Assembly: GCA_029863845.1 (NCBI GenBank)
Contig: JAOTUO010000003.1
Span: 1-34,357, forward strand
From: Myxococcales bacterium
GTDB lineage: Bacteria; Myxococcota_A; UBA9160; SMWR01
DNA: 34,357 nucleotides
Reading direction: 5' to 3'
The notes under the pieces are model-generated. The model worked only from the letters and a program-made list of their open reading frames with translations. It searched no databases and had not been told where the DNA came from. The first letter of the stretch is position 1. Every line of letters starts with the position of its first letter. Shown in pieces: positions 25,310 to 34,357 of this stretch. The translations under genes were made by a program, and so were the position numbers.

Positions 25310-25326
25310 CTGGCACAGAGCTTGCG
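25310..25326 (+). promoter_or_regulatory. Sigma54 (-24/-12) promoter upstream of the cytochrome cluster
   Basis: CTGGCACAGAGCTTGCG is an exact TGGCAC-N5-TTGC match (GG 25312-13, GC 25324-25), in a 600-bp intergenic region and oriented toward 25570. Confidence 0.85.
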
Positions 25327-25569: not shown

Positions 25570-27735
25570 ATGTCGCATCGGCCAAGGATCGCATTCCCGC
25601 TCGTCGTGCTCGCCTTGCTCGCCGGCGCATCCGTTGCCGCCGCCGCGATCGAGGAGCCCGTCTACACCGAGGACGACTACCAGGAGTTCGACAACGCCGA
25701 CTGCCTGGGCTGTCACGAGGACGAAGAGCTGGAGGCGGACACCGAACGCGGCGAAGGGCTCGAGCTCTACGTGGACGAAGCGATCCTGCGGCACTCGGTT
25801 CACAAGGAGCAGAACTGCACCGGCTGTCACCGGGGCGCGCAGGACTTCGAGGACTCCCCCCACAACGAGGGCGAGCCGCTCGCGCTGAACTGCGCGGGCT
25901 CCGAGTGCCACACCGACGTCGTGTCGGAGTACGACAAGAGCATCCACGGGAAATGGCACGCGAAGGGAGACGAGGAAGCCGCGACCTGCAAGGACTGCCA
26001 CGGCAACCACGCAATCCTGCCTTCTTCGGATCGAAAGTCCAGAACCAACAAGTTCAACCTCCACAAGACCTGCGCCGAGTGTCACGAGAGCGAAGTCGTC
26101 CTCGATTCCCGCCCCATCGATTACGACGCGGCGGTGTCCGACTTCGTCGACTCGATCCACGGGAAGGCGCTGCTGGTGGACGGACTGATCGTGGCTCCGA
26201 CCTGCAATGACTGCCACGGCGTCCACAACATCCTGTCCAAGGAAGACCCGGATTCCAGGGTCAGCAGAGAGATGGTGCCGAAGACCTGCGGCGAGTGTCA
26301 CGTCCTGGTGGAGGGCGTCTTCAACGCGAGCGTCCACGGAATGACCCTCAACTCCCACGACGTCAGCGCCCCGGTCTGCACCACCTGCCATCCCTCGCAC
26401 GTCTCCGAGCTGCCCTCGGGTCTGGAGTTCCGCCTGCACGCGGACCGGATGTGCGGCGATTGTCACGCAGAGCAGCTCGCCGGCTACCGCGACACCTTCC
26501 ACGGCAAGGCGATTGCGCTGGGTCGCCAGGACGTCGCGGCCTGTTACGACTGCCACGGCCACCACGACATCGCCGAGACCCACGATCCAGTCTCGTACAT
26601 CAGCGACGAACGACGGGTGGAGACCTGCAAGAAGTGTCACCCGGCCGCCAACGCGAACTTCGCCCGCTACATGGTCCACGCCAACCACTCCGACCGGGAA
26701 GCCTATCCCCAGCTCTACTACGTCTTCTGGGGCATGACCTGGCTTCTGATCGGAACCTTCGCCTTCTTCGCACTGCACACTCTCCTGTGGCTCTATCGCT
26801 CCATGGCTCTCTACATGAGCGATTCGAGGGAGTGGCGCGACGTGAAGAACCAGGTCCGGGAAGACACCGAAGAGTTCACCCGCTTCACGCCGCTGGACCG
26901 CTTCCTGCACGGCCTGGTCATCGTCAGCTTCCTGCTTCTGGTCATGACGGGAATGCCGCTCAAGTTCTACTACACGGACTGGGCCAAGGTGCTGCTCGGC
27001 GTCATGGGCGGCCAGGCCGTCGCGGCCGTCCTCCACCGCGTGGGAGCCCTGGTCACGATCTTCTACTTCACGGTCCACGTCAGCGCCGTTCTCTACGCGC
27101 TCTTCCAGGGGCGGCGGCGCTTCTTGAATTCGGAGACCGGAAGAATCGACCTCAAGAAGATCGGCGCGGCGCTCACCGGCCCGGATTCTCCGATGCCCGG
27201 CATCCAGGACTTCAAGGACGTCATCGCCCACAACAAGTGGTTCTTCGGGATGGGACCCAAGCCGCAGTTCGACCGCTGGACCTACTGGGAGAAGTTCGAC
27301 TACATGGCGGTCTTCTGGGGCGTGGCGATGATCGGTGCGAGCGGACTGATCATGTGGTTCCCCGAATTCTTCACCCTGCTCCTGCCGGGCTGGTCGATCA
27401 ATGTGGCTCACATCATCCATTCCGACGAGGCGCTGCTGGCGGCCGGCTTCATCTTCACCTTCCATTTCTTCAACGTGCACTTCCGACCCGACAAGTTCCC
27501 GATGGATCCCGTGATGTTCTCCGGCCGAATGTCCAAGTCGGAGCTGATGCACGAGCGCGGGAAGCTGTACGAGCGCTGGGTCGCCGACGGGACACTGGAC
27601 CAGCACCGTGCGGGTCACGAGTGGGATGCCTGGAAGAAGATCGCGCTGCCCGCCGGCTTCATCGCGTTCCTGATCGGCGTCGGCCTGATGATCCTGATCT
27701 ACGTCGCCATGGCGAGCCGCCTTACCGGAGAGTAG
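25570..27735 (+). CDS. Multiheme cytochrome c (10 CxxCH + 1 CX4CH) fused to FdnI/HydC-type cytochrome b (CbcL-like)
   Basis: Sec-type signal. CLGCH, CTGCH, CAGSECH, CKDCH, CAECH, CNDCH, CGECH, CTTCH, CGDCH, CYDCH, CKKCH. TM domain RFTPLDRFLH, VLHRVG, FDRWTYWEKFDY, IIHSDEALLA, TFHFFNVH. SD GGGAGG. Confidence 0.92.
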   Translation: MSHRPRIAFPLVVLALLAGASVAAAAIEEPVYTEDDYQEFDNADCLGCHEDEELEADTERGEGLELYVDEAILRHSVHKEQNCTGCHRGAQDFEDSPHNEGEPLALNCAGSECHTDVVSEYDKSIHGKWHAKGDEEAATCKDCHGNHAILPSSDRKSRTNKFNLHKTCAECHESEVVLDSRPIDYDAAVSDFVDSIHGKALLVDGLIVAPTCNDCHGVHNILSKEDPDSRVSREMVPKTCGECHVLVEGVFNASVHGMTLNSHDVSAPVCTTCHPSHVSELPSGLEFRLHADRMCGDCHAEQLAGYRDTFHGKAIALGRQDVAACYDCHGHHDIAETHDPVSYISDERRVETCKKCHPAANANFARYMVHANHSDREAYPQLYYVFWGMTWLLIGTFAFFALHTLLWLYRSMALYMSDSREWRDVKNQVREDTEEFTRFTPLDRFLHGLVIVSFLLLVMTGMPLKFYYTDWAKVLLGVMGGQAVAAVLHRVGALVTIFYFTVHVSAVLYALFQGRRRFLNSETGRIDLKKIGAALTGPDSPMPGIQDFKDVIAHNKWFFGMGPKPQFDRWTYWEKFDYMAVFWGVAMIGASGLIMWFPEFFTLLLPGWSINVAHIIHSDEALLAAGFIFTFHFFNVHFRPDKFPMDPVMFSGRMSKSELMHERGKLYERWVADGTLDQHRAGHEWDAWKKIALPAGFIAFLIGVGLMILIYVAMASRLTGE

Positions 27736-27740
27736 TCGCC

Positions 27741-29687
27741 ATGTCGGGCATCGCAGCGCGCAGCAGCACGAGCTTCCTCGAGCCGCGAGTCGCTCTGGCG
27801 GTCTCCGTCCTGCTGCTGCTGGGATGGGTGGGCTTCGCAAAGGCCGCCCAAGCGGATCTCGAAGACGCAGCTCCCGAGGAGGAGATCGAGGCCGAGTCCT
27901 GCGGAGACTGTCACGACGAAGGTCGCGAGGACGCGCCGATCGTCACCCCGGACTTGATCGAGAGCTCCGTACACGAGGACCTGGAGTGTGAAGACTGTCA
28001 CGCCGACGCAGAGGTCGACCTACACGAGCAGCAACTCGATCTCGTCGCGTGCGAAGACTGCCACGAGGACGAAGCGGAGGTCTACGTAAAACACGGAAGG
28101 CTGGCGGTCGGAACGGACGTAGACCTCCCCAGCTGTTCCGACTGCCACGGCACGCACGAAATCCTCGTATCCGACGACGAGGCTTCGCGGGTCCATCCCC
28201 TGAATCTGCCCGATACGTGCGGAAGCTGCCACGAGGACTATGCCCTCACACTGAACCACAAATTCCTCCCGAAGCATCCGGTCGAGACGTACAGGGAGAG
28301 CGTGCACGGCAAGGCGACCTCTGGCGGTCGCTACAAGGCCGCGACCTGCAACGATTGTCATTCCACCGACAATACGGCGCACCGGATCCTCTCTCCGGGT
28401 GATCCGGAATCCACGATCAATCACTTCGCCATTCCCCGGACATGCGGTCGGTGCCACGAAGCCATCGAAAAAGACTACTGGGACGGAATTCATGGGCAGC
28501 TGACTGCGAGGGGGGAGACCGAGTCGCCCGTGTGCACCCACTGTCACGGCGAGCACCGGATCATTTCGCCCGACGATCCGCGCTCGCCCGTCAGCCCCAG
28601 CCACGTGGCGGAGGCGACCTGCGCCCCCTGCCACGAGTCGGCCACACTCAACGAGAAATACGGGATTCCGGCGGGACGCCTGGCTTCCTTCATCGATTCC
28701 TATCACGGATTGAAGAGCAAGGCGGGTGACGTCTCGGTTGCGAATTGCGCCTCGTGTCATGGTGCACACCGGATACTGCCGCATACGGATGAAACCTCGT
28801 CGATCTATGTCGACAATTTGCAGCAGACCTGCGGCGAATGTCATCCGGGCATTTCCGAAGAAATGGCTCAGTCGAAGATCCACGAAATCGGCTGGACGCG
28901 TATGAGCGGCTGGCCCGACTTCTTTGCGGTCATGTACATGATCATGATCACGGTCACCCTCTTCGGGATGCTCCTCTACATCGCTATGGACTTCCGACGG
29001 CAGCTCGGGAAGGTGCTGCGCGCAGAGCAGGTCCGACGCATGACGCGATGGGAGCTCTTGCAGCACACCGGGCTGATGATCGCGTTCCTCGTCATGGTCG
29101 TTACGGGCTTCGCGCTTCGGTTCTCGGACGCGTGGTGGGCGACGCTGCTGTTCGGCAGGGAAGGCGGGTTCCCGCTGCGCAACACGATTCACCGGGCCAC
29201 GGGGGTGATTCTGGTACTGCTGTCGCTGGCGCACCTCTTCTACCTGCGCGGCACCCGAGGACGCGAATTCCTCAGGGATGTCTTTCCTTCGCTGAGCGAT
29301 CTCGTTCAGCTTCGTCAGATGCTCCGGTACAACCTGGGGCTTTCGGACGAGAGGCCGCGCTTTGGCAGGTTCGGCTTCGGTGAGAAGTTCGAGTACTGGG
29401 CGCTGGTGTGGGGAATGGTCATCATGACCGTGACCGGCACGATGCTGTGGTTCGACAACTACTTCGTGAGGATCGTGCCCAAGGGCGTGCTCGACGTGAT
29501 GTTGGTGATCCACTATTACGAGGCGTGGCTGGCGACCATCTCGATCCTGATCTGGCACATGTATTCGACGATCTTCAATCCGGCCGTGTATCCGATGAAT
29601 CCTTCCTGGCTCACCGGCAAGATGCCGGTCGAGCAGTACCGGCATGAGCACCTGGGTGACGAAGTGGACGCCGGATGGCACCTGTGA
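27741..29687 (+). CDS. Second multiheme cytochrome c (11 CxxCH) fused to cytochrome b (CbcL-like paralog)
   Basis: Signal peptide. CGDCH, CEDCH, CEDCH, CSDCH, CGSCH, CNDCH, CGRCH, CTHCH, CAPCH, CASCH, CGECH. ELLQH, TIHR, FGRFGFGEKFEYWA, VIHYYEAWLA, IWHMY, MNPSWLTG. Confidence 0.92.
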   Translation: MSGIAARSSTSFLEPRVALAVSVLLLLGWVGFAKAAQADLEDAAPEEEIEAESCGDCHDEGREDAPIVTPDLIESSVHEDLECEDCHADAEVDLHEQQLDLVACEDCHEDEAEVYVKHGRLAVGTDVDLPSCSDCHGTHEILVSDDEASRVHPLNLPDTCGSCHEDYALTLNHKFLPKHPVETYRESVHGKATSGGRYKAATCNDCHSTDNTAHRILSPGDPESTINHFAIPRTCGRCHEAIEKDYWDGIHGQLTARGETESPVCTHCHGEHRIISPDDPRSPVSPSHVAEATCAPCHESATLNEKYGIPAGRLASFIDSYHGLKSKAGDVSVANCASCHGAHRILPHTDETSSIYVDNLQQTCGECHPGISEEMAQSKIHEIGWTRMSGWPDFFAVMYMIMITVTLFGMLLYIAMDFRRQLGKVLRAEQVRRMTRWELLQHTGLMIAFLVMVVTGFALRFSDAWWATLLFGREGGFPLRNTIHRATGVILVLLSLAHLFYLRGTRGREFLRDVFPSLSDLVQLRQMLRYNLGLSDERPRFGRFGFGEKFEYWALVWGMVIMTVTGTMLWFDNYFVRIVPKGVLDVMLVIHYYEAWLATISILIWHMYSTIFNPAVYPMNPSWLTGKMPVEQYRHEHLGDEVDAGWHL

Positions 29688-29986
29688 CCGGGACGCTGGC
29701 ACGCGACCTCGAATAGCCGAGGCCAACGAGGTGTCCGCGAGCAGCCGTGTCCCACGCGCGGCCGAGGACCTACACCGGAACAGCAGTCTGCGGGCTCCCT
29801 GGGATGAGGGGTGGCTCGCTCGGGGCGAGCGCCCGACGCAGTCGCGGACTGTGTCGATTCGCCCGCCGGACTGTAGAGGCACACCCCAGGCAGCGCCCCT
29901 GCGGTGCAGGCCCGGCAGCCTGCGCGCACCGTCCCGTAGCACTGTGTTTTCAGGCAGTTAGAGATTCGATGCGATGGGTACGAGCG

Positions 29987-30003
29987 GTGGTATGGCTCTT
30001 GCA
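29987..30003 (+). promoter_or_regulatory. Second sigma54 (-24/-12) promoter
   Basis: GTGGTATGGCTCTTGCA: GG(29989-90)-N10-GC(30001-02) with TTGCA. IHF-like TTTCAGGCAGTTA at 29948-29960. Confidence 0.75.
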
Positions 30004-30081: not shown

Positions 30082-30204
30082 ATGGTTGCCATCTTCGTCG
30101 TCCTGTTGATCCTCGGGCTGGTCGCCATCGACGCGGCTCTCCAGCTGAGAAAGCGGCGTCGGGAGCAGCGGGCGATTTCGCCCGATCTCTCTCGAGACCG
30201 CTAG
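30082..30204 (+). CDS. 40-aa single-TM small protein
   Basis: MVAIFVVLLILGLVAIDAALQLRKRRREQRAISPDLSRDR: hydrophobic helix followed by a basic cluster. GAGG 8 nt upstream of the ATG. First ORF after the sigma54 promoter. Confidence 0.6.
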   Translation: MVAIFVVLLILGLVAIDAALQLRKRRREQRAISPDLSRDR

Positions 30205-30354: not shown

Positions 30355-31176
30355 ATGGCCCTGGGCATCTTGACCGACATCACCCGGTGCGTCGGCTGCA
30401 GAGCCTGTGTCTACGCCTGCAAGGAGATCAACGATCTGCCGAGGGACGAGGCGCGCCATCTCAACTCCGAGACCTGGACGTGCGTCGAAGAGCGGGCCGG
30501 ATTGAACGTCCGCAGGCAGTGCATGCACTGCCTGGATCCGGCCTGCGTCTCCGTCTGCCCGGTGGGCGCTCTCCGGAAGACCTCGGAGGGGCCGGTCGTG
30601 TACGACGAGTCCGCCTGCATGGGTTGCCGCTACTGCATGCTGGCCTGCCCGTACCGGGTGCCCAAGTACGAGTGGCAGAGCGCCCTGCCCCGCATGCAGA
30701 AGTGCATCATGTGCTTCCACCAACGGGTCGAGCAGGGCCAGCAGCCCGCCTGCACCGAGGCCTGCCCGGCTCAGGCCACCATGTTCGGCGAGCGGAACGA
30801 CCTGATCCGCGAGGCACGCGCGCGCATCCGGCGGAGCCCGGAGCGCTACGTGGACCACATCTATGGACTGAAGGAGGCAGGCGGAACCTCCGTCCTCTAC
30901 CTCTCCAGCCTGCCTTTCGAGCGGCTGGGTTTCCCGATGAAGCTGGACGTCGAGGCCTACCCGCGGCTGATCTGGAACATCCTGTCGACCATCCCCAACG
31001 TCGTGCTCACCGGTGGAGTGTTCATGTTCGGGCTCTGGTGGCTCATCAACCGCCGCGAGACGCTGAGCGGCACGCCCAGATCGCCGGCGGACGCCCAGAG
31101 CATCGCATCGTCGTCGCAGGACGAAGGCCCGGAGCCCGGAGCGGGTGGAGACCGCACGCGCGCCGAAGAGGAGTGA
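30355..31176 (+). CDS. 4x[4Fe-4S] ferredoxin-like subunit (HybA/HmcB/FdnH-like) with C-terminal TM helix
   Basis: CVGCRACVYAC, CMHCLDPACVSVCP, CMGCRYCMLACP, CIMC...PACTEACP; YVDHIYGLKEAGGTSVLYL; C-terminal TM then INRR. SD GGAGGAGG. Confidence 0.93.
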   Translation: MALGILTDITRCVGCRACVYACKEINDLPRDEARHLNSETWTCVEERAGLNVRRQCMHCLDPACVSVCPVGALRKTSEGPVVYDESACMGCRYCMLACPYRVPKYEWQSALPRMQKCIMCFHQRVEQGQQPACTEACPAQATMFGERNDLIREARARIRRSPERYVDHIYGLKEAGGTSVLYLSSLPFERLGFPMKLDVEAYPRLIWNILSTIPNVVLTGGVFMFGLWWLINRRETLSGTPRSPADAQSIASSSQDEGPEPGAGGDRTRAEEE

Positions 31177-31181
31177 CGACC

Positions 31182-32801
31182 ATGAAGCGGCTCTGGTCTG
31201 TCCTGAGCTTCTGGAGGGTGCTGGCCGCCGCGGTCGCGGGCATCGGGATCTGGGCCACGGTGGTCCGCTTCACCCAGGGACTGGGAGCGGCCACGAACCT
31301 GTCGGATCAGTTCCCCTGGGGCCTCTGGATCGGCTTCGACCTGCTGGTGGGAGTGGCGCTGGCCGCCGGCGGATTCACCATCACCGCGACGGTCTACATC
31401 TTCAATCTAGAGCGCTTCAGGCCCATCGTCCGTCCTACGGTGCTGACGGCATTCCTCGGGTACCTGCTGGTCATCTTCGCCCTGCTGTTCGACCTGGGCC
31501 GTCCCTACCGGATCTGGCATCCGCTGATCATGTGGAATACCCGCTCGGCGCTGTTCGAGGTGGCCTGGTGCGTAATGCTCTACACGACGGTCCTGGCCCT
31601 CGAGTTCAGCCCCATGCTGCTGGAGCGCCTGAGGTTGGAGAAGCCCGCGCGGATCATCCGGGGGCTTTCGGTTCCGCTCGTCATCGTGGGGGTGCTGCTT
31701 TCCACCCTGCATCAGTCCTCGTTGGGCACGCTGTTCGTGATCGTCCCCGAGAAGATGCACGGCCTCTGGTACACGCCCATGCTGCCCGTGGCCTTCTTCG
31801 TGAGCGCCATCGCCGCCGGCCTGAGCATGGTCATCGTGGAGTCCTTCATCAGCGCGCGAGCTTTCGGCCGGCGGCTCGAACACGATCTACTGGAGGACGT
31901 GGGTCGGGCGATCGTGGTGGTGCTGGCGCTCTACTCGATCATCAAGCTACAGGATCTGCTCATCCGGGGGGTCGCTGATCTCCTCTTCGTGCGGTCTCCC
32001 GAGTCGCTCCTGTTCCAGGTAGAGCTGGTCTTCGGGGTCGTGCTGCCCATGATCATGTTCTCCGTGCCCATGGTGCGGCGAAACCGTGGCGGTCTGTTCG
32101 TCGCAGCCCTACTGGTCGTTGTGGGACTCATCCTGAATCGGCTCAACGTGTGCATCACCGGCATGCAGGGTGCCATGGGGCAGGACTATTTCCTGGAGCC
32201 CGGCATGGAAACGGCTTATTTCCCCTCCCTGCTGGAGCTGTCCGTGACGGGATTCCTGGTGGTCATGGGCTGCGTGGGCTTCACGCTGGCCGCCAGGTTC
32301 CTGGAGGTCTTCCCGGAATCCCCTGGTCTGGATGGCGATTACGAGGCGGCGCGGATCGAAGTGCAGACCCATCCGTGGGTGCGCTGGGTCTCCAGGGGCG
32401 TACTCGTAGCCCTGGCGATCGTGTTGGTCGAGGGTGCCGTCACCTTCGACTTCAGCAGCTTCGGTGGGGAGCGCGCCGGGCCCGCGATGCTCATGTCCGC
32501 ACCGACGAACCGGCTGGTGCTTCGGCTACCGCCGGACATGTCGTACCCACCGGGCGAAGAGAGTCCCGGCGTGGTCGAGTTCAGCCATGCGATGCACGTC
32601 GATGCGGAAGAGCCCGACTGTGCCGCGTGTCACCGAGAGGCCTTTCCGCTGGTGCGGCGGGCGGGCATGATCGTGCCGCGGATGACCTGGTCGGGCGAGC
32701 AGCTTCACGAGCAGGGCTGGTGCGGAATGTGCCATGACGGAGACGAGTCCTTTTCCGTCGAGGACGAGGAAGAGTGCGGCAGCTGCCACTTCGAGCCATG
32801 A
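31182..32801 (+). CDS. NrfD/PsrC-family (HybB/HmcC-like) membrane protein fused to a C-terminal triheme c7-type cytochrome
   Basis: GLGAATNLSDQFPWGLWIGFDLL, DLGRPYRIWHP, WNTRSALFEVAWC, LSTLHQSSLG, ILNRLNV; then VEFSHAMH, CAACH, CGMCH, CGSCH. Confidence 0.92.
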   Translation: MKRLWSVLSFWRVLAAAVAGIGIWATVVRFTQGLGAATNLSDQFPWGLWIGFDLLVGVALAAGGFTITATVYIFNLERFRPIVRPTVLTAFLGYLLVIFALLFDLGRPYRIWHPLIMWNTRSALFEVAWCVMLYTTVLALEFSPMLLERLRLEKPARIIRGLSVPLVIVGVLLSTLHQSSLGTLFVIVPEKMHGLWYTPMLPVAFFVSAIAAGLSMVIVESFISARAFGRRLEHDLLEDVGRAIVVVLALYSIIKLQDLLIRGVADLLFVRSPESLLFQVELVFGVVLPMIMFSVPMVRRNRGGLFVAALLVVVGLILNRLNVCITGMQGAMGQDYFLEPGMETAYFPSLLELSVTGFLVVMGCVGFTLAARFLEVFPESPGLDGDYEAARIEVQTHPWVRWVSRGVLVALAIVLVEGAVTFDFSSFGGERAGPAMLMSAPTNRLVLRLPPDMSYPPGEESPGVVEFSHAMHVDAEEPDCAACHREAFPLVRRAGMIVPRMTWSGEQLHEQGWCGMCHDGDESFSVEDEEECGSCHFEP

Positions 32802-34357
32802 GCGCGGTCATCCAGATCTCGAACGTACTGCTCGTTGCAGCACGGCTGGGTCGCATCATCCTCGCGGTCGTTGCGGCGGTCGTGGGGCTCGGCGTCGCGC
32901 CGTCGTCCTCTCTCGGAGAGCTGCCGCCGGAACCTGGCGATGGCCACGTCACCCGTCGCGATGAGCAGACGGCATCCGTGGCGCGTGACGACGTGCGGCG
33001 GCGCGCGCCGATCACCGCGGATGACCGCGTGACCACCGACGAAGGCAGGGTCGTCGACATCGCCGTGCTGGCCAATGACCGCGATCCCGACGGCGGTGTC
33101 CTGAGGGTGGTGGGCGTAACGAAGGCCGTGAACGGCTGGGTGCTGGTCAACGGAGATCACACGCTCCGGTACCAGCCCAACACCGGGTTCACCGGCCTGG
33201 ACGGCTTCGCCTACACGGTTGCTGACGAGCACGGAGGGAAGGCGACTGCGACGGTTCGCGTCGAGGTGAACGACGTCGCCGACGCCCCGGTCGCCGAGAA
33301 TCAGGTCGTCGAGACGGACGAGGACACGCCGCTGGCGATTGCGTTGGTGGCGAGCGACGCGGATGGCGATCGGCTGACGTTCACGATCGAGAGAGCACCG
33401 GAGCACGGCTCGCTGATCGGAATGCCTCCCGACTGGTCCTACGTCCCGGATGCCGAATACAGCGGGCCGGACAGATTCGTGTTCGCGGTGGACGATGGGC
33501 ACGGCGGGAGCGACACCGGCACGGTGTCGATCACGATCGATGCCGTCGATGACGTGCCCGAGGCAGTGGACGACGAGGCGGTGACGCGCGAAGGCATGGT
33601 CGTCGACATCGCCGTGCTGGCCAACGACCGCGACCCCGATGGCGGTGTCCTGAGAGTGGTGGGCGTAACAAAGGCCGTGAACGGCTGGGTGCTGGTCAAC
33701 GGAGATCACACGCTCCGGTACCAGCCCAACACCGGGTTCACCGGCCGGGACGGCTTCGCCTACACGGTGGATGACGGCCACGGCGGGAAGGCGACTGCGA
33801 GCGTCAGCGTCGAGGTGAACGACGTCGCCGACGCCCCGGTCGCCGAGAACCAGGCCGTCGCAACGGATGAGGACACGGCGCTGACGATTGCGTTGGTGGC
33901 GAGCGACGCGGATGGCGATCGGCTGACATTCACGATCGAGAGACCCCCGGCGCACGGCTCGCTGATCGGAGCGCCTCCGGACTTGTCCTACGTCCCGGAG
34001 GCCGACTACAGCGGGCCGGACAGATTCGTCTTCGCGGTGGACGATGGGCACGGCGGGAGCGACACGGGGACGGTGTCGATCGCGATCGATGCCGTCGATG
34101 ACGCGCCCGAGGCGGTGGACGACGAGGCGGTGACGAGAGAAGGCATGGTCGTCGACATCGCCGTGCTGGCGAATGACCGCGATCCCGACGGCGGTGTCCT
34201 GAGGGTGGTGGGCGTCACCCAGGCCGTGAACGGTTGGGTGGTGGTCAACGGCGATCACACGCTTCGATACCAGCCCAACACCGGGTTCACCGGCCTGGAC
34301 GGCTTCGCCTACAGGATTGCTGACGTCGATGGCGGGATGGACACGGCGGCGGTCGGC
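32798..34357 (+). CDS. Secreted/surface protein with tandem bacterial Ig-like (cadherin-like) domains; partial, runs off the window
   Basis: Absent from the ORF track because there is no stop in the window. ATG 32798 overlaps the upstream TGA. Manual translation: MSAVIQISNVLLVAARLGRIILAVVAAVVGLGVAP...APITADDRVTTDEGRVVDIAVLANDRDPDGGVLRVV...YQPNTGFTGLDGFAYTVADEHGG...APVAENQVVETDEDTPLAIALVASDADGDRLTF...YVPDAEYSGPDRFVFAVDDGHGG. Confidence 0.9.
   Translation, partial: MSAVIQISNVLLVAARLGRIILAVVAAVVGLGVAPSSSLGELPPEPGDGHVTRRDEQTASVARDDVRRRAPITADDRVTTDEGRVVDIAVLANDRDPDGGVLRVVGVTKAVNGWVLVNGDHTLRYQPNTGFTGLDGFAYTVADEHGGKATATVRVEVNDVADAPVAENQVVETDEDTPLAIALVASDADGDRLTFTIERAPEHGSLIGMPPDWSYVPDAEYSGPDRFVFAVDDGHGGSDTGTVSITIDAVDDVPEAVDDEAVTREGMVVDIAVLANDRDPDGGVLRVVGVTKAVNGWVLVNGDHTLRYQPNTGFTGRDGFAYTVDDGHGGKATASVSVEVNDVADAPVAENQAVATDEDTALTIALVASDADGDRLTFTIERPPAHGSLIGAPPDLSYVPEADYSGPDRFVFAVDDGHGGSDTGTVSIAIDAVDDAPEAVDDEAVTREGMVVDIAVLANDRDPDGGVLRVVGVTQAVNGWVVVNGDHTLRYQPNTGFTGLDGFAYRIADVDGGMDTAAVG
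33041..34357 (+). repeat. 549-bp intragenic tandem repeat (two Ig-like domains per unit), 2 full copies + 1 partial
   Basis: GAAGGCA.GGTCGTCGACATCGCCGTGCTGGC starts at 33041, 33590 and 34139 (period 549 nt = 183 aa). The copies are near-identical in nucleotide sequence. Confidence 0.95.

Follow-up and report, generated by a model that had tools for sequence, protein, structure and literature searches.

Gene pair at the locus

We analysed a window of 34,357 nucleotides from a Myxococcales bacterium of the lineage UBA9160 (assembly GCA_029863845.1, contig JAOTUO010000003.1, here C412), in which two adjacent genes encode CbcL-like multihaem cytochromes. The source genome (G000) has 4.14 Mb with a G+C content of 70% and is 91% complete. 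Gene 1 (25570..27735, forward strand) encodes a six-helix protein of the CbcL/MtrH/MtoC family with 721 amino acids (aa), a signal peptide and 11 c-haem sites. Gene 2 (27741..29687, forward strand) encodes a five-helix sister type with 648 aa, a signal peptide and 11 CXXCH motifs. Both are open frames in the same orientation with a gap of 5 base pairs (bp), and Pfam family PF01292 matches the C-terminal domain of both proteins. A first-pass annotation, made from the sequence alone, had described adjacent genes sharing one architecture of signal peptide, 11 haem sites and FdnI-type cytochrome b (FdnI is the formate dehydrogenase-N gamma subunit), and this description holds; the two proteins are 29% identical across 641 columns (BLASTP).

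The N-terminal hydrophobic segments cover residues 7-25 in gene 1 and 17-35 in gene 2. The following part is very acidic, as had been noticed: residues 26-125 hold 29 Asp/Glu against 5 Lys/Arg in gene 1, and 31 against 4 in gene 2. Close homologues share this acidity (net 0.24 and 0.26 per residue), which is weaker in more distant sequences (0.03 and 0.13). In gene 1, ten haem motifs are CXXCH and one is CX4CH (C108-H114, site 3). The latter is a real haem site, because the aligned column is CXXCH in 79 of 100 sequences and all 100 have 11 sites. Gene 1 has 11 conserved His outside the motifs and no conserved Met, a sequence pattern that would agree with bis-His ligation of the c haems. Distal His positions conserved at 90% or more number 11 in gene 1 and 13 in gene 2, enough for the haems of each.

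The structure model of gene 1 (mean predicted local distance difference test, pLDDT, 86.8) has helices at 380-417, 441-465, 482-513, 572-596, 608-637 and 685-718, and hydropathy also supports six. Its top fold match is FdnI (1kqf_C, TM-score 0.74 on the target, E 1e-3). His403 lies in the anchor helix, and the b domain holds His447, His489, His617 and His632 together with the conserved His503 and His637. The model of gene 2 has five helices and no sixth, with Tyr413 in the anchor helix at the position of gene 1 His403. Its cytochrome b ligand set is His442, His484, His591 and His606, plus His498. The first four align with FdnI His18, His57, His155 and His169 (1kqf_C, E 1e-6), which we take to be haem ligands, and they share columns with gene 1 His447, His489, His617 and His632; 190-191 of 191 rows have His in these columns. 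Conservation alone led us to consider a third b haem in gene 1, placed between His403 and His503; surplus His in CbcL has already been discussed (10.1101/2021.04.15.440034).

Two subfamilies of the membrane domain

A quick IQ-TREE tree was made from 122 of the 183 membrane domains collected, after redundant soil and Bacteroidota rows were thinned, and it was midpoint-rooted with no outgroup. It separated 85 gene-1-type rows from 37 gene-2-type rows by a long branch with a Shimodaira-Hasegawa-like approximate likelihood ratio (SH-aLRT) support of 100, and it places genes 1 and 2 in two deep, old and widespread subfamilies. A recent tandem duplication was rejected by the 29% identity and this deep split.

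The sixth helix is present in all 82 untruncated gene-1-type rows and in none of the 33 untruncated gene-2-type rows. A long loop occurs in 43 of the 85 gene-1-type rows. The first-pass annotation had treated this loop and the C-terminal helix as additions to gene 1; both exist, but they are traits of the subfamily rather than extras. His403, His447, His489, His617 and His632 of gene 1 are kept in 84-85 of the 85 rows of its type, with His403 and also His637 in 84 each. The helix-1 His is kept in 28 of the 37 gene-2-type rows and is the one replaced by Tyr413 in our gene 2. Thus gene 1 classifies as an ordinary member of a catalogued type, and gene 2 as the variant that departs from CbcL, because CbcL itself has six helices.

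The subfamilies also differ at the quinone site. At the positions of FdnI Asn110 and Gln113, presumably part of that site, gene 1 has Thr and Glu and gene 2 has Gly and Glu. The gene-1 types read Thr-Tyr-Trp-Glu-Lys there, while the gene-2 types mostly have Asn (26/37), with Gly in this gene.

Promoter and regulation

A sigma-54-type -24/-12 promoter motif lies at 25311..25325 on the forward strand, 245 bp upstream of gene 1, and is predicted to drive both genes. It is the sole strict match in the window, but it is weak when taken alone because 10 of 100 shuffled sequences also give one. A relaxed form of the motif recurs among close orthologues, where 5 of 6 loci have it some 215-250 bp before the gene, and none of 39 distant loci has it. 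This predicted and conserved sigma-54 promoter, upstream of both genes, is new here. Since one such promoter would be shared, tuning to potential would not come from separate transcription of the two genes.

RpoN-box and activator motifs were found in 1 and 13 reading frames of the source genome, respectively. A sigma-70 scan gave 0 promoters, and terminators numbered 6 against 3.5 ± 2.3, which is no excess. Elsewhere in the genome, a strict sigma-54 motif stands at C460:2121 before a cluster of tetrahaem, iron-sulfur (FeS) and NrfD genes, which hints at a shared regulon.

Genome context

The source genome has menD and menB over cut-off; the genome search found these classical men genes and did not find the futalosine family PF02621. 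It also has four cytochrome c assembly matches and a haem-copper oxidase, and the organism looks facultatively aerobic. An ImcH-like protein is encoded beside a c554-like tetrahaem cytochrome on contig C39, and contig C460 holds the Cbc-like tetrahaem/FeS/NrfD cluster.

The first-pass annotation had proposed a search for a porin-cytochrome conduit, and one cluster on contig C180 answers to it. An OmcA/MtrC-family decahaem cytochrome (403 bits against a cut-off of 209) is adjoined by an MtrA-like decahaem (below cut-off), a porin-like frame with a weak match to the MtrB family, and a GspD-like secretin. The gene pair and this Mtr-like cluster are on different contigs.

Related genomes bring such genes closer together. 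The order on contig C4 of genome G120 is ImcH-like gene, gene 2, gene 1, tetrahaem, sigma-54-activator-like gene, 13-haem cytochrome, porin and decahaem, and this porin matches the C180 porin at 48%. In locus L012 a PF11854 porin (E 9e-122) and a decahaem come right after the pair. Genome G050 has two decahaem genes, a porin-like gene, an ImcH-like gene and a single gene-1-type protein. The two genes are real and were correctly described, they are fairly ordinary, and their setting is a credible context for extracellular electron transfer.

Distribution of the pair

Homologue searches gave 2245 sequences for gene 1 and 3441 for gene 2, each among about 8000 candidates. We examined the best 80 of 388 loci for gene 1 and the best 80 of 452 for gene 2, and counted partners where at least 3 kb was available on both sides. 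Among 49 gene-1-type loci, 27 were solo, 6 had a five-helix partner and 16 had a second six-helix type. Among 31 gene-2-type loci, 30 were solo and 1 was paired, and all 31 had an ImcH-like gene. Since each type is found without its counterpart, the wider family is unlikely to depend on an obligate heterodimer. Orthologues with 76-81% identity were present in four of 150 other genomes of the order, each with an adjoining second match; these may overlap with the loci named here. In 301 genomes of the phylum, 51 matched the gene 2 membrane domain at E 1e-10 or better. By these counts the pair has a patchy distribution: one small clade keeps it stably, and the family as a whole does not require it.

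Several other arrangements were seen at these loci. In nearly all long-enough metagenome loci among L140-L214, the five-helix 11-haem type is directly followed by an ImcH-like gene. In L037 (5658-10766) one open frame of 1702 aa joins a 13-haem five-helix protein with a 19-haem six-helix protein, with 32 CXXCH in all, while its relative L036 has the two as separate genes. The second signal peptide could serve as a linking helix, and the join may be a natural fusion or an assembly deletion in a single metagenome-assembled genome (MAG). Phycisphaerales loci L008-L028 pair two different six-helix types with each other and also have two proteins bearing 13 CXXCH plus 1-2 longer motifs. Polyangiaceae-like loci (L026, L029-L035, L040, L045) have a frame of about 730 aa with 33-34 CXXCH beside the six-helix gene.

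Proposed function

The name given to the two proteins in the first-pass annotation, CbcL-like quinol:cytochrome c oxidoreductases, is supported, and neither of the findings that it had listed as refuting this turned up. We favour, at somewhat better than even chances, two separate co-expressed menaquinol oxidases, each with its own 11-haem chain, which would probably feed an MtrC/MtrA/porin conduit. Separate working is supported because each protein is complete alone, with four FdnI-equivalent His and enough distal His.

By FdnI homology and the literature on CbcL, quinol would be oxidised at the b haem on the cytoplasmic side. Protons would then be released inside and no energy conserved, as has been argued for CbcL (10.1101/2022.08.31.506072), since quinol chemistry on the cytoplasmic side is what FdnI homology predicts. 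Electrons would cross the two b haems into the 11-haem c chain. From there, small cytochromes of the periplasm may carry them to the decahaem conduit, which would act as a wire at the outer membrane and whose genes lie in another part of the genome. Such a route would be of low yield and could reach low-potential acceptors, with a sigma-54 activator turning it on when better acceptors are scarce. It is plausible that genes 1 and 2 have different working potentials, judging from their differing quinone-site residues and helix sets.

Some points weigh against this proposal. The family is reported from Fe(III) reducers and from Fe(II) oxidisers, and no sequence feature for direction is given in the accessible part of PMC6295460. 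The porin-like frame on C180, with 717 codons, matches PF11854 with E 8e-5 and 21.8 bits against a cut-off of 23; the genome-wide PF11854 search missed it, and the weak match came from direct scoring of the gene after the decahaem. Among five genomes tested, an MtrC-family cytochrome was over cut-off in the source genome only and a C180-type porin was found in 2, where three of the genomes are 78-87% complete. As to separate working, the solo gene-2-type loci mostly represent one redundant clade at about 40% identity and say little about this lineage, in which 7 of 8 close gene-1 orthologues with downstream DNA retain the five-helix partner.

Alternative explanations

The first-pass annotation had offered a heterodimer or two conduits tuned to different potentials. 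Two conduits fit, and they may or may not differ in potential, while the heterodimer is weakened by the solo loci. In this lineage a heterodimer would unite 22 c haems and two quinone sites in one complex. The 5-bp gap, the single promoter and the retention among close orthologues agree with it, as does the recurrence of six- plus five-helix pairs in unrelated branches (L007, L036/L037, L061, L071, L135) and the presence of both types in the 1702-aa frame of L037, where an assembly deletion is possible. But each type is mostly solo and holds a full ligand set in its own chain, and the partner varies: 16 of 49 gene-1-type loci have a second six-helix protein, and L006, the exception among the close orthologues, has an ImcH-like gene directly after gene 1. 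The two partners also diverged unevenly, with gene 1/gene 2 identities of 77/56% in L004 and 62/33% in L007. A complex prediction with gene 1 residues 320-721, gene 2 residues 330-640 and four haems scored 0.13 and 0.00 (mark 0.32) and counts neither way. We regard this heterodimer as unlikely.

We also hold as doubtful a more elaborate scheme, in which an undescribed five-helix sister subfamily of CbcL, linked to ImcH and with a different quinone site, would in this Myxococcota-like lineage be tied to its six-helix partner, either in a heterodimer of 22 c haems or in a fixed two-step ladder. It would give a facultative aerobe a potential-switched extracellular respiration from one sigma-54 operon, and the L037 join would be a natural fusion.

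The proteins may instead work inward as quinone reductases, fed by molybdoenzymes of the periplasm or, through the Mtr-like conduit, by donors outside the cell, with FdnI-like conservation of energy. The FdnI fold normally reduces quinone (10.1101/2022.08.31.506072), MtoC homologues occur in Fe(II) oxidisers (PMC6295460), and the last four haem spacings of gene 1 are nearer to MtrH than to CbcL. The source genome has the haem-copper oxidase and 23 molybdopterin-family matches, 7 of them with a twin-arginine motif by a strict pattern and 6 of these outside the alternative complex III (ACIII) locus. However, no molybdoenzyme gene was seen beside the pair in the close-relative loci inspected, where no profile search was made for it. 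What recurs next to the pair are ImcH-like and porin/decahaem genes, and the accessible part of PMC6295460 reports ImcH from Fe(III) reducers only. Inward work thus seems improbable to us.

Quinol oxidation might also end in the periplasm, where it would serve acceptors or charge the haems as an electron store for times when oxygen drops, and involve no extracellular transfer. The separate contigs of the pair and the Mtr-like cluster, the lack of an MtrC over cut-off in the four relatives tested and the facultatively aerobic look of the organism are in line with this. It is nevertheless rather improbable in view of the porin and decahaem genes beside the pair in L012 and in the same contig region in G120.

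Sub-threshold matches to FdnI-type models and names in databases ('formate dehydrogenase gamma subunit', for example) might suggest that the proteins anchor a formate dehydrogenase or hydrogenase whose genes lie at another locus. This is very improbable and largely refuted: each protein has its own 11-haem domain, no NiFe hydrogenase (PF00374) was found in the 91% complete genome, and its one formate dehydrogenase over cut-off is of the TIGR01591 type with a NuoG-like N-terminus, adjoins a NuoF-like gene and stays far below the cut-off for FdnG.

Downstream genes and other observations

A second sigma-54-like motif (29988..30002, forward strand) lies ahead of a downstream module and is an identical 15-mer in the closest relative, L003. 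A 40-bp block at 29850-29889, about 100 bp before this motif, is 83% identical to L003 and is a candidate activator site. All three genes that follow are on the forward strand and are accessory. The first (30082..30204) encodes a single-helix peptide of 40 aa with no Pfam match, and its frame is conserved in L003. The second (30355..31176) encodes an HmcB/HybA-like 4Fe-4S protein with a C-terminal hydrophobic stretch; it matches NF045715 with E 3.5e-75, below cut-off and at model positions 36-304 only. It has no twin-arginine (Tat) signal, because an upstream in-frame stop leaves no space for the leader. The third (31173..32801) encodes an HmcC/HybB-like NrfD protein fused to a c7-type trihaem domain (PF03916, PF14522), which matches NF045714 with E 3.8e-106, below cut-off. 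Because its own sigma-54-like motif precedes it, this FeS/NrfD-c7 module is probably a separate, accessory unit.

Among close relatives, an NrfD-c7 gene downstream of the pair was found only in L003, which shares the layout of 30355-32801. L021 has a related module with 12 haem motifs in the NrfD frame. Directly after the NrfD gene, at 32799-34357, a surface protein with bacterial immunoglobulin-like (Big_9) repeats begins and is cut short by the end of the contig.

About 14 long molybdoenzyme frames of the type II dimethyl sulfoxide (DMSO) reductase-like kind are found in the source genome, on contigs C78, C86, C16, C127, C166, C180, C256, C276, C416 and C420, with twin-arginine leaders in some and none in others. 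The one member tested, on C180 and without a twin-arginine motif, matched best to the type II DMSO-reductase model TIGR03479 and to ethylbenzene dehydrogenase alpha. At C325:659-4134 of the same genome, a cytochrome b6-like gene is followed by a gene for a 9-haem membrane-anchored cytochrome.

Comparison with known systems

The likeness to CbcL was judged from published haem and helix positions. In CbcL of Geobacter sulfurreducens (GSU0274), as in both proteins here, a multihaem c domain in the periplasm is joined to a cytochrome b like FdnI; the c haems of CbcL are bis-His coordinated. CbcL is a genetically shown route to acceptors at -100 to -210 mV (PMC13591261; 10.1101/2022.08.31.506072). 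It has six helices (PMC6295460), of which the first three each contain His and the fifth contains two (10.1101/2021.04.15.440034), as gene 1 does, while gene 2 has five helices and lacks the helix-1 His. It differs from both genes in having 9 haems instead of 11 and a different haem spacing. Furthermore, cbcL is constitutive (10.1101/2022.08.31.506072), in contrast to the sigma-54 motif before this pair.

CbcBA of the same species (GSU0593-0594) also joins a b-type quinol oxidase with an anchored multihaem c protein, works at low potential and is under sigma-54 control (10.1101/2021.04.15.440034). Its anchor helix plus four helices equal the helix count of gene 2. However, only three of its His ligands belong to CbcB and the fourth is supplied by CbcA, whereas genes 1 and 2 carry all four FdnI-type His within their own b domains; CbcB is also stated to have no sequence homology to CbcL (10.1101/2021.04.15.440034). 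FdnI (1kqf chain C) shares the fold and the four His positions, but it has no fused c-haem domain, and its Asn110 and Gln113 are replaced in both genes. No full-length b/c fusion of the CbcL family turned up among solved structures.

Zhong and Shi 2018 (PMC6295460) catalogued the CbcL/MtrH/MtoC family in 15 phyla, its members having 3-23 haems. Table S2 of that paper has 11-haem six-helix members of 706-729 aa, such as OGQ81067.1 and Opitutus terrae Oter_2603, and the haem spacing of OGQ81067.1 equals that of gene 1 in 9 of 10 intervals, the tenth being off by 2 at the CX4CH of gene 1. The same table has no 11-haem five-helix row with the spacing of gene 2, and tandem six-plus-five-helix pairs are not described in the accessible part of the paper. 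Nor did our literature search, whose scope excluded most subscription journals and bioRxiv supplements, find a paper on such pairs. With an exported multihaem c domain, six helices and the FdnI-like His set, gene 1 fits the family. Gene 2 has the multihaem c domain and the four-His b domain and differs in helix number and helix-1 His. Gene 2 therefore belongs to a sister type, likely CbcL-like in function and not CbcL itself; this type is apparently undescribed but common.

The first-pass annotation had stressed that the lineage was not established as electroactive. In the accessible literature on UBA9160 nothing on electron transfer was found, but the novelty was overstated: CbcL and MtrC were already reported in Myxococcota MAGs, with four CbcL in one operational taxonomic unit (10.1101/2022.03.26.485925), and expressed ImcH and CbcL homologues with consecutive accessions are also reported (PMC12133095). 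The present case is of incremental value, as publications already cover the family, how widely it occurs and its connection with Mtr genes. With it, an uncultured Myxococcota-like heterotroph joins the candidates for extracellular respiration. For the question, live even in Geobacter, of how cells choose among inner-membrane quinol oxidases by redox potential, two proteins that are equal in haem number and unlike in their membrane domains and quinone-site residues offer a natural comparison of working potential and direction.

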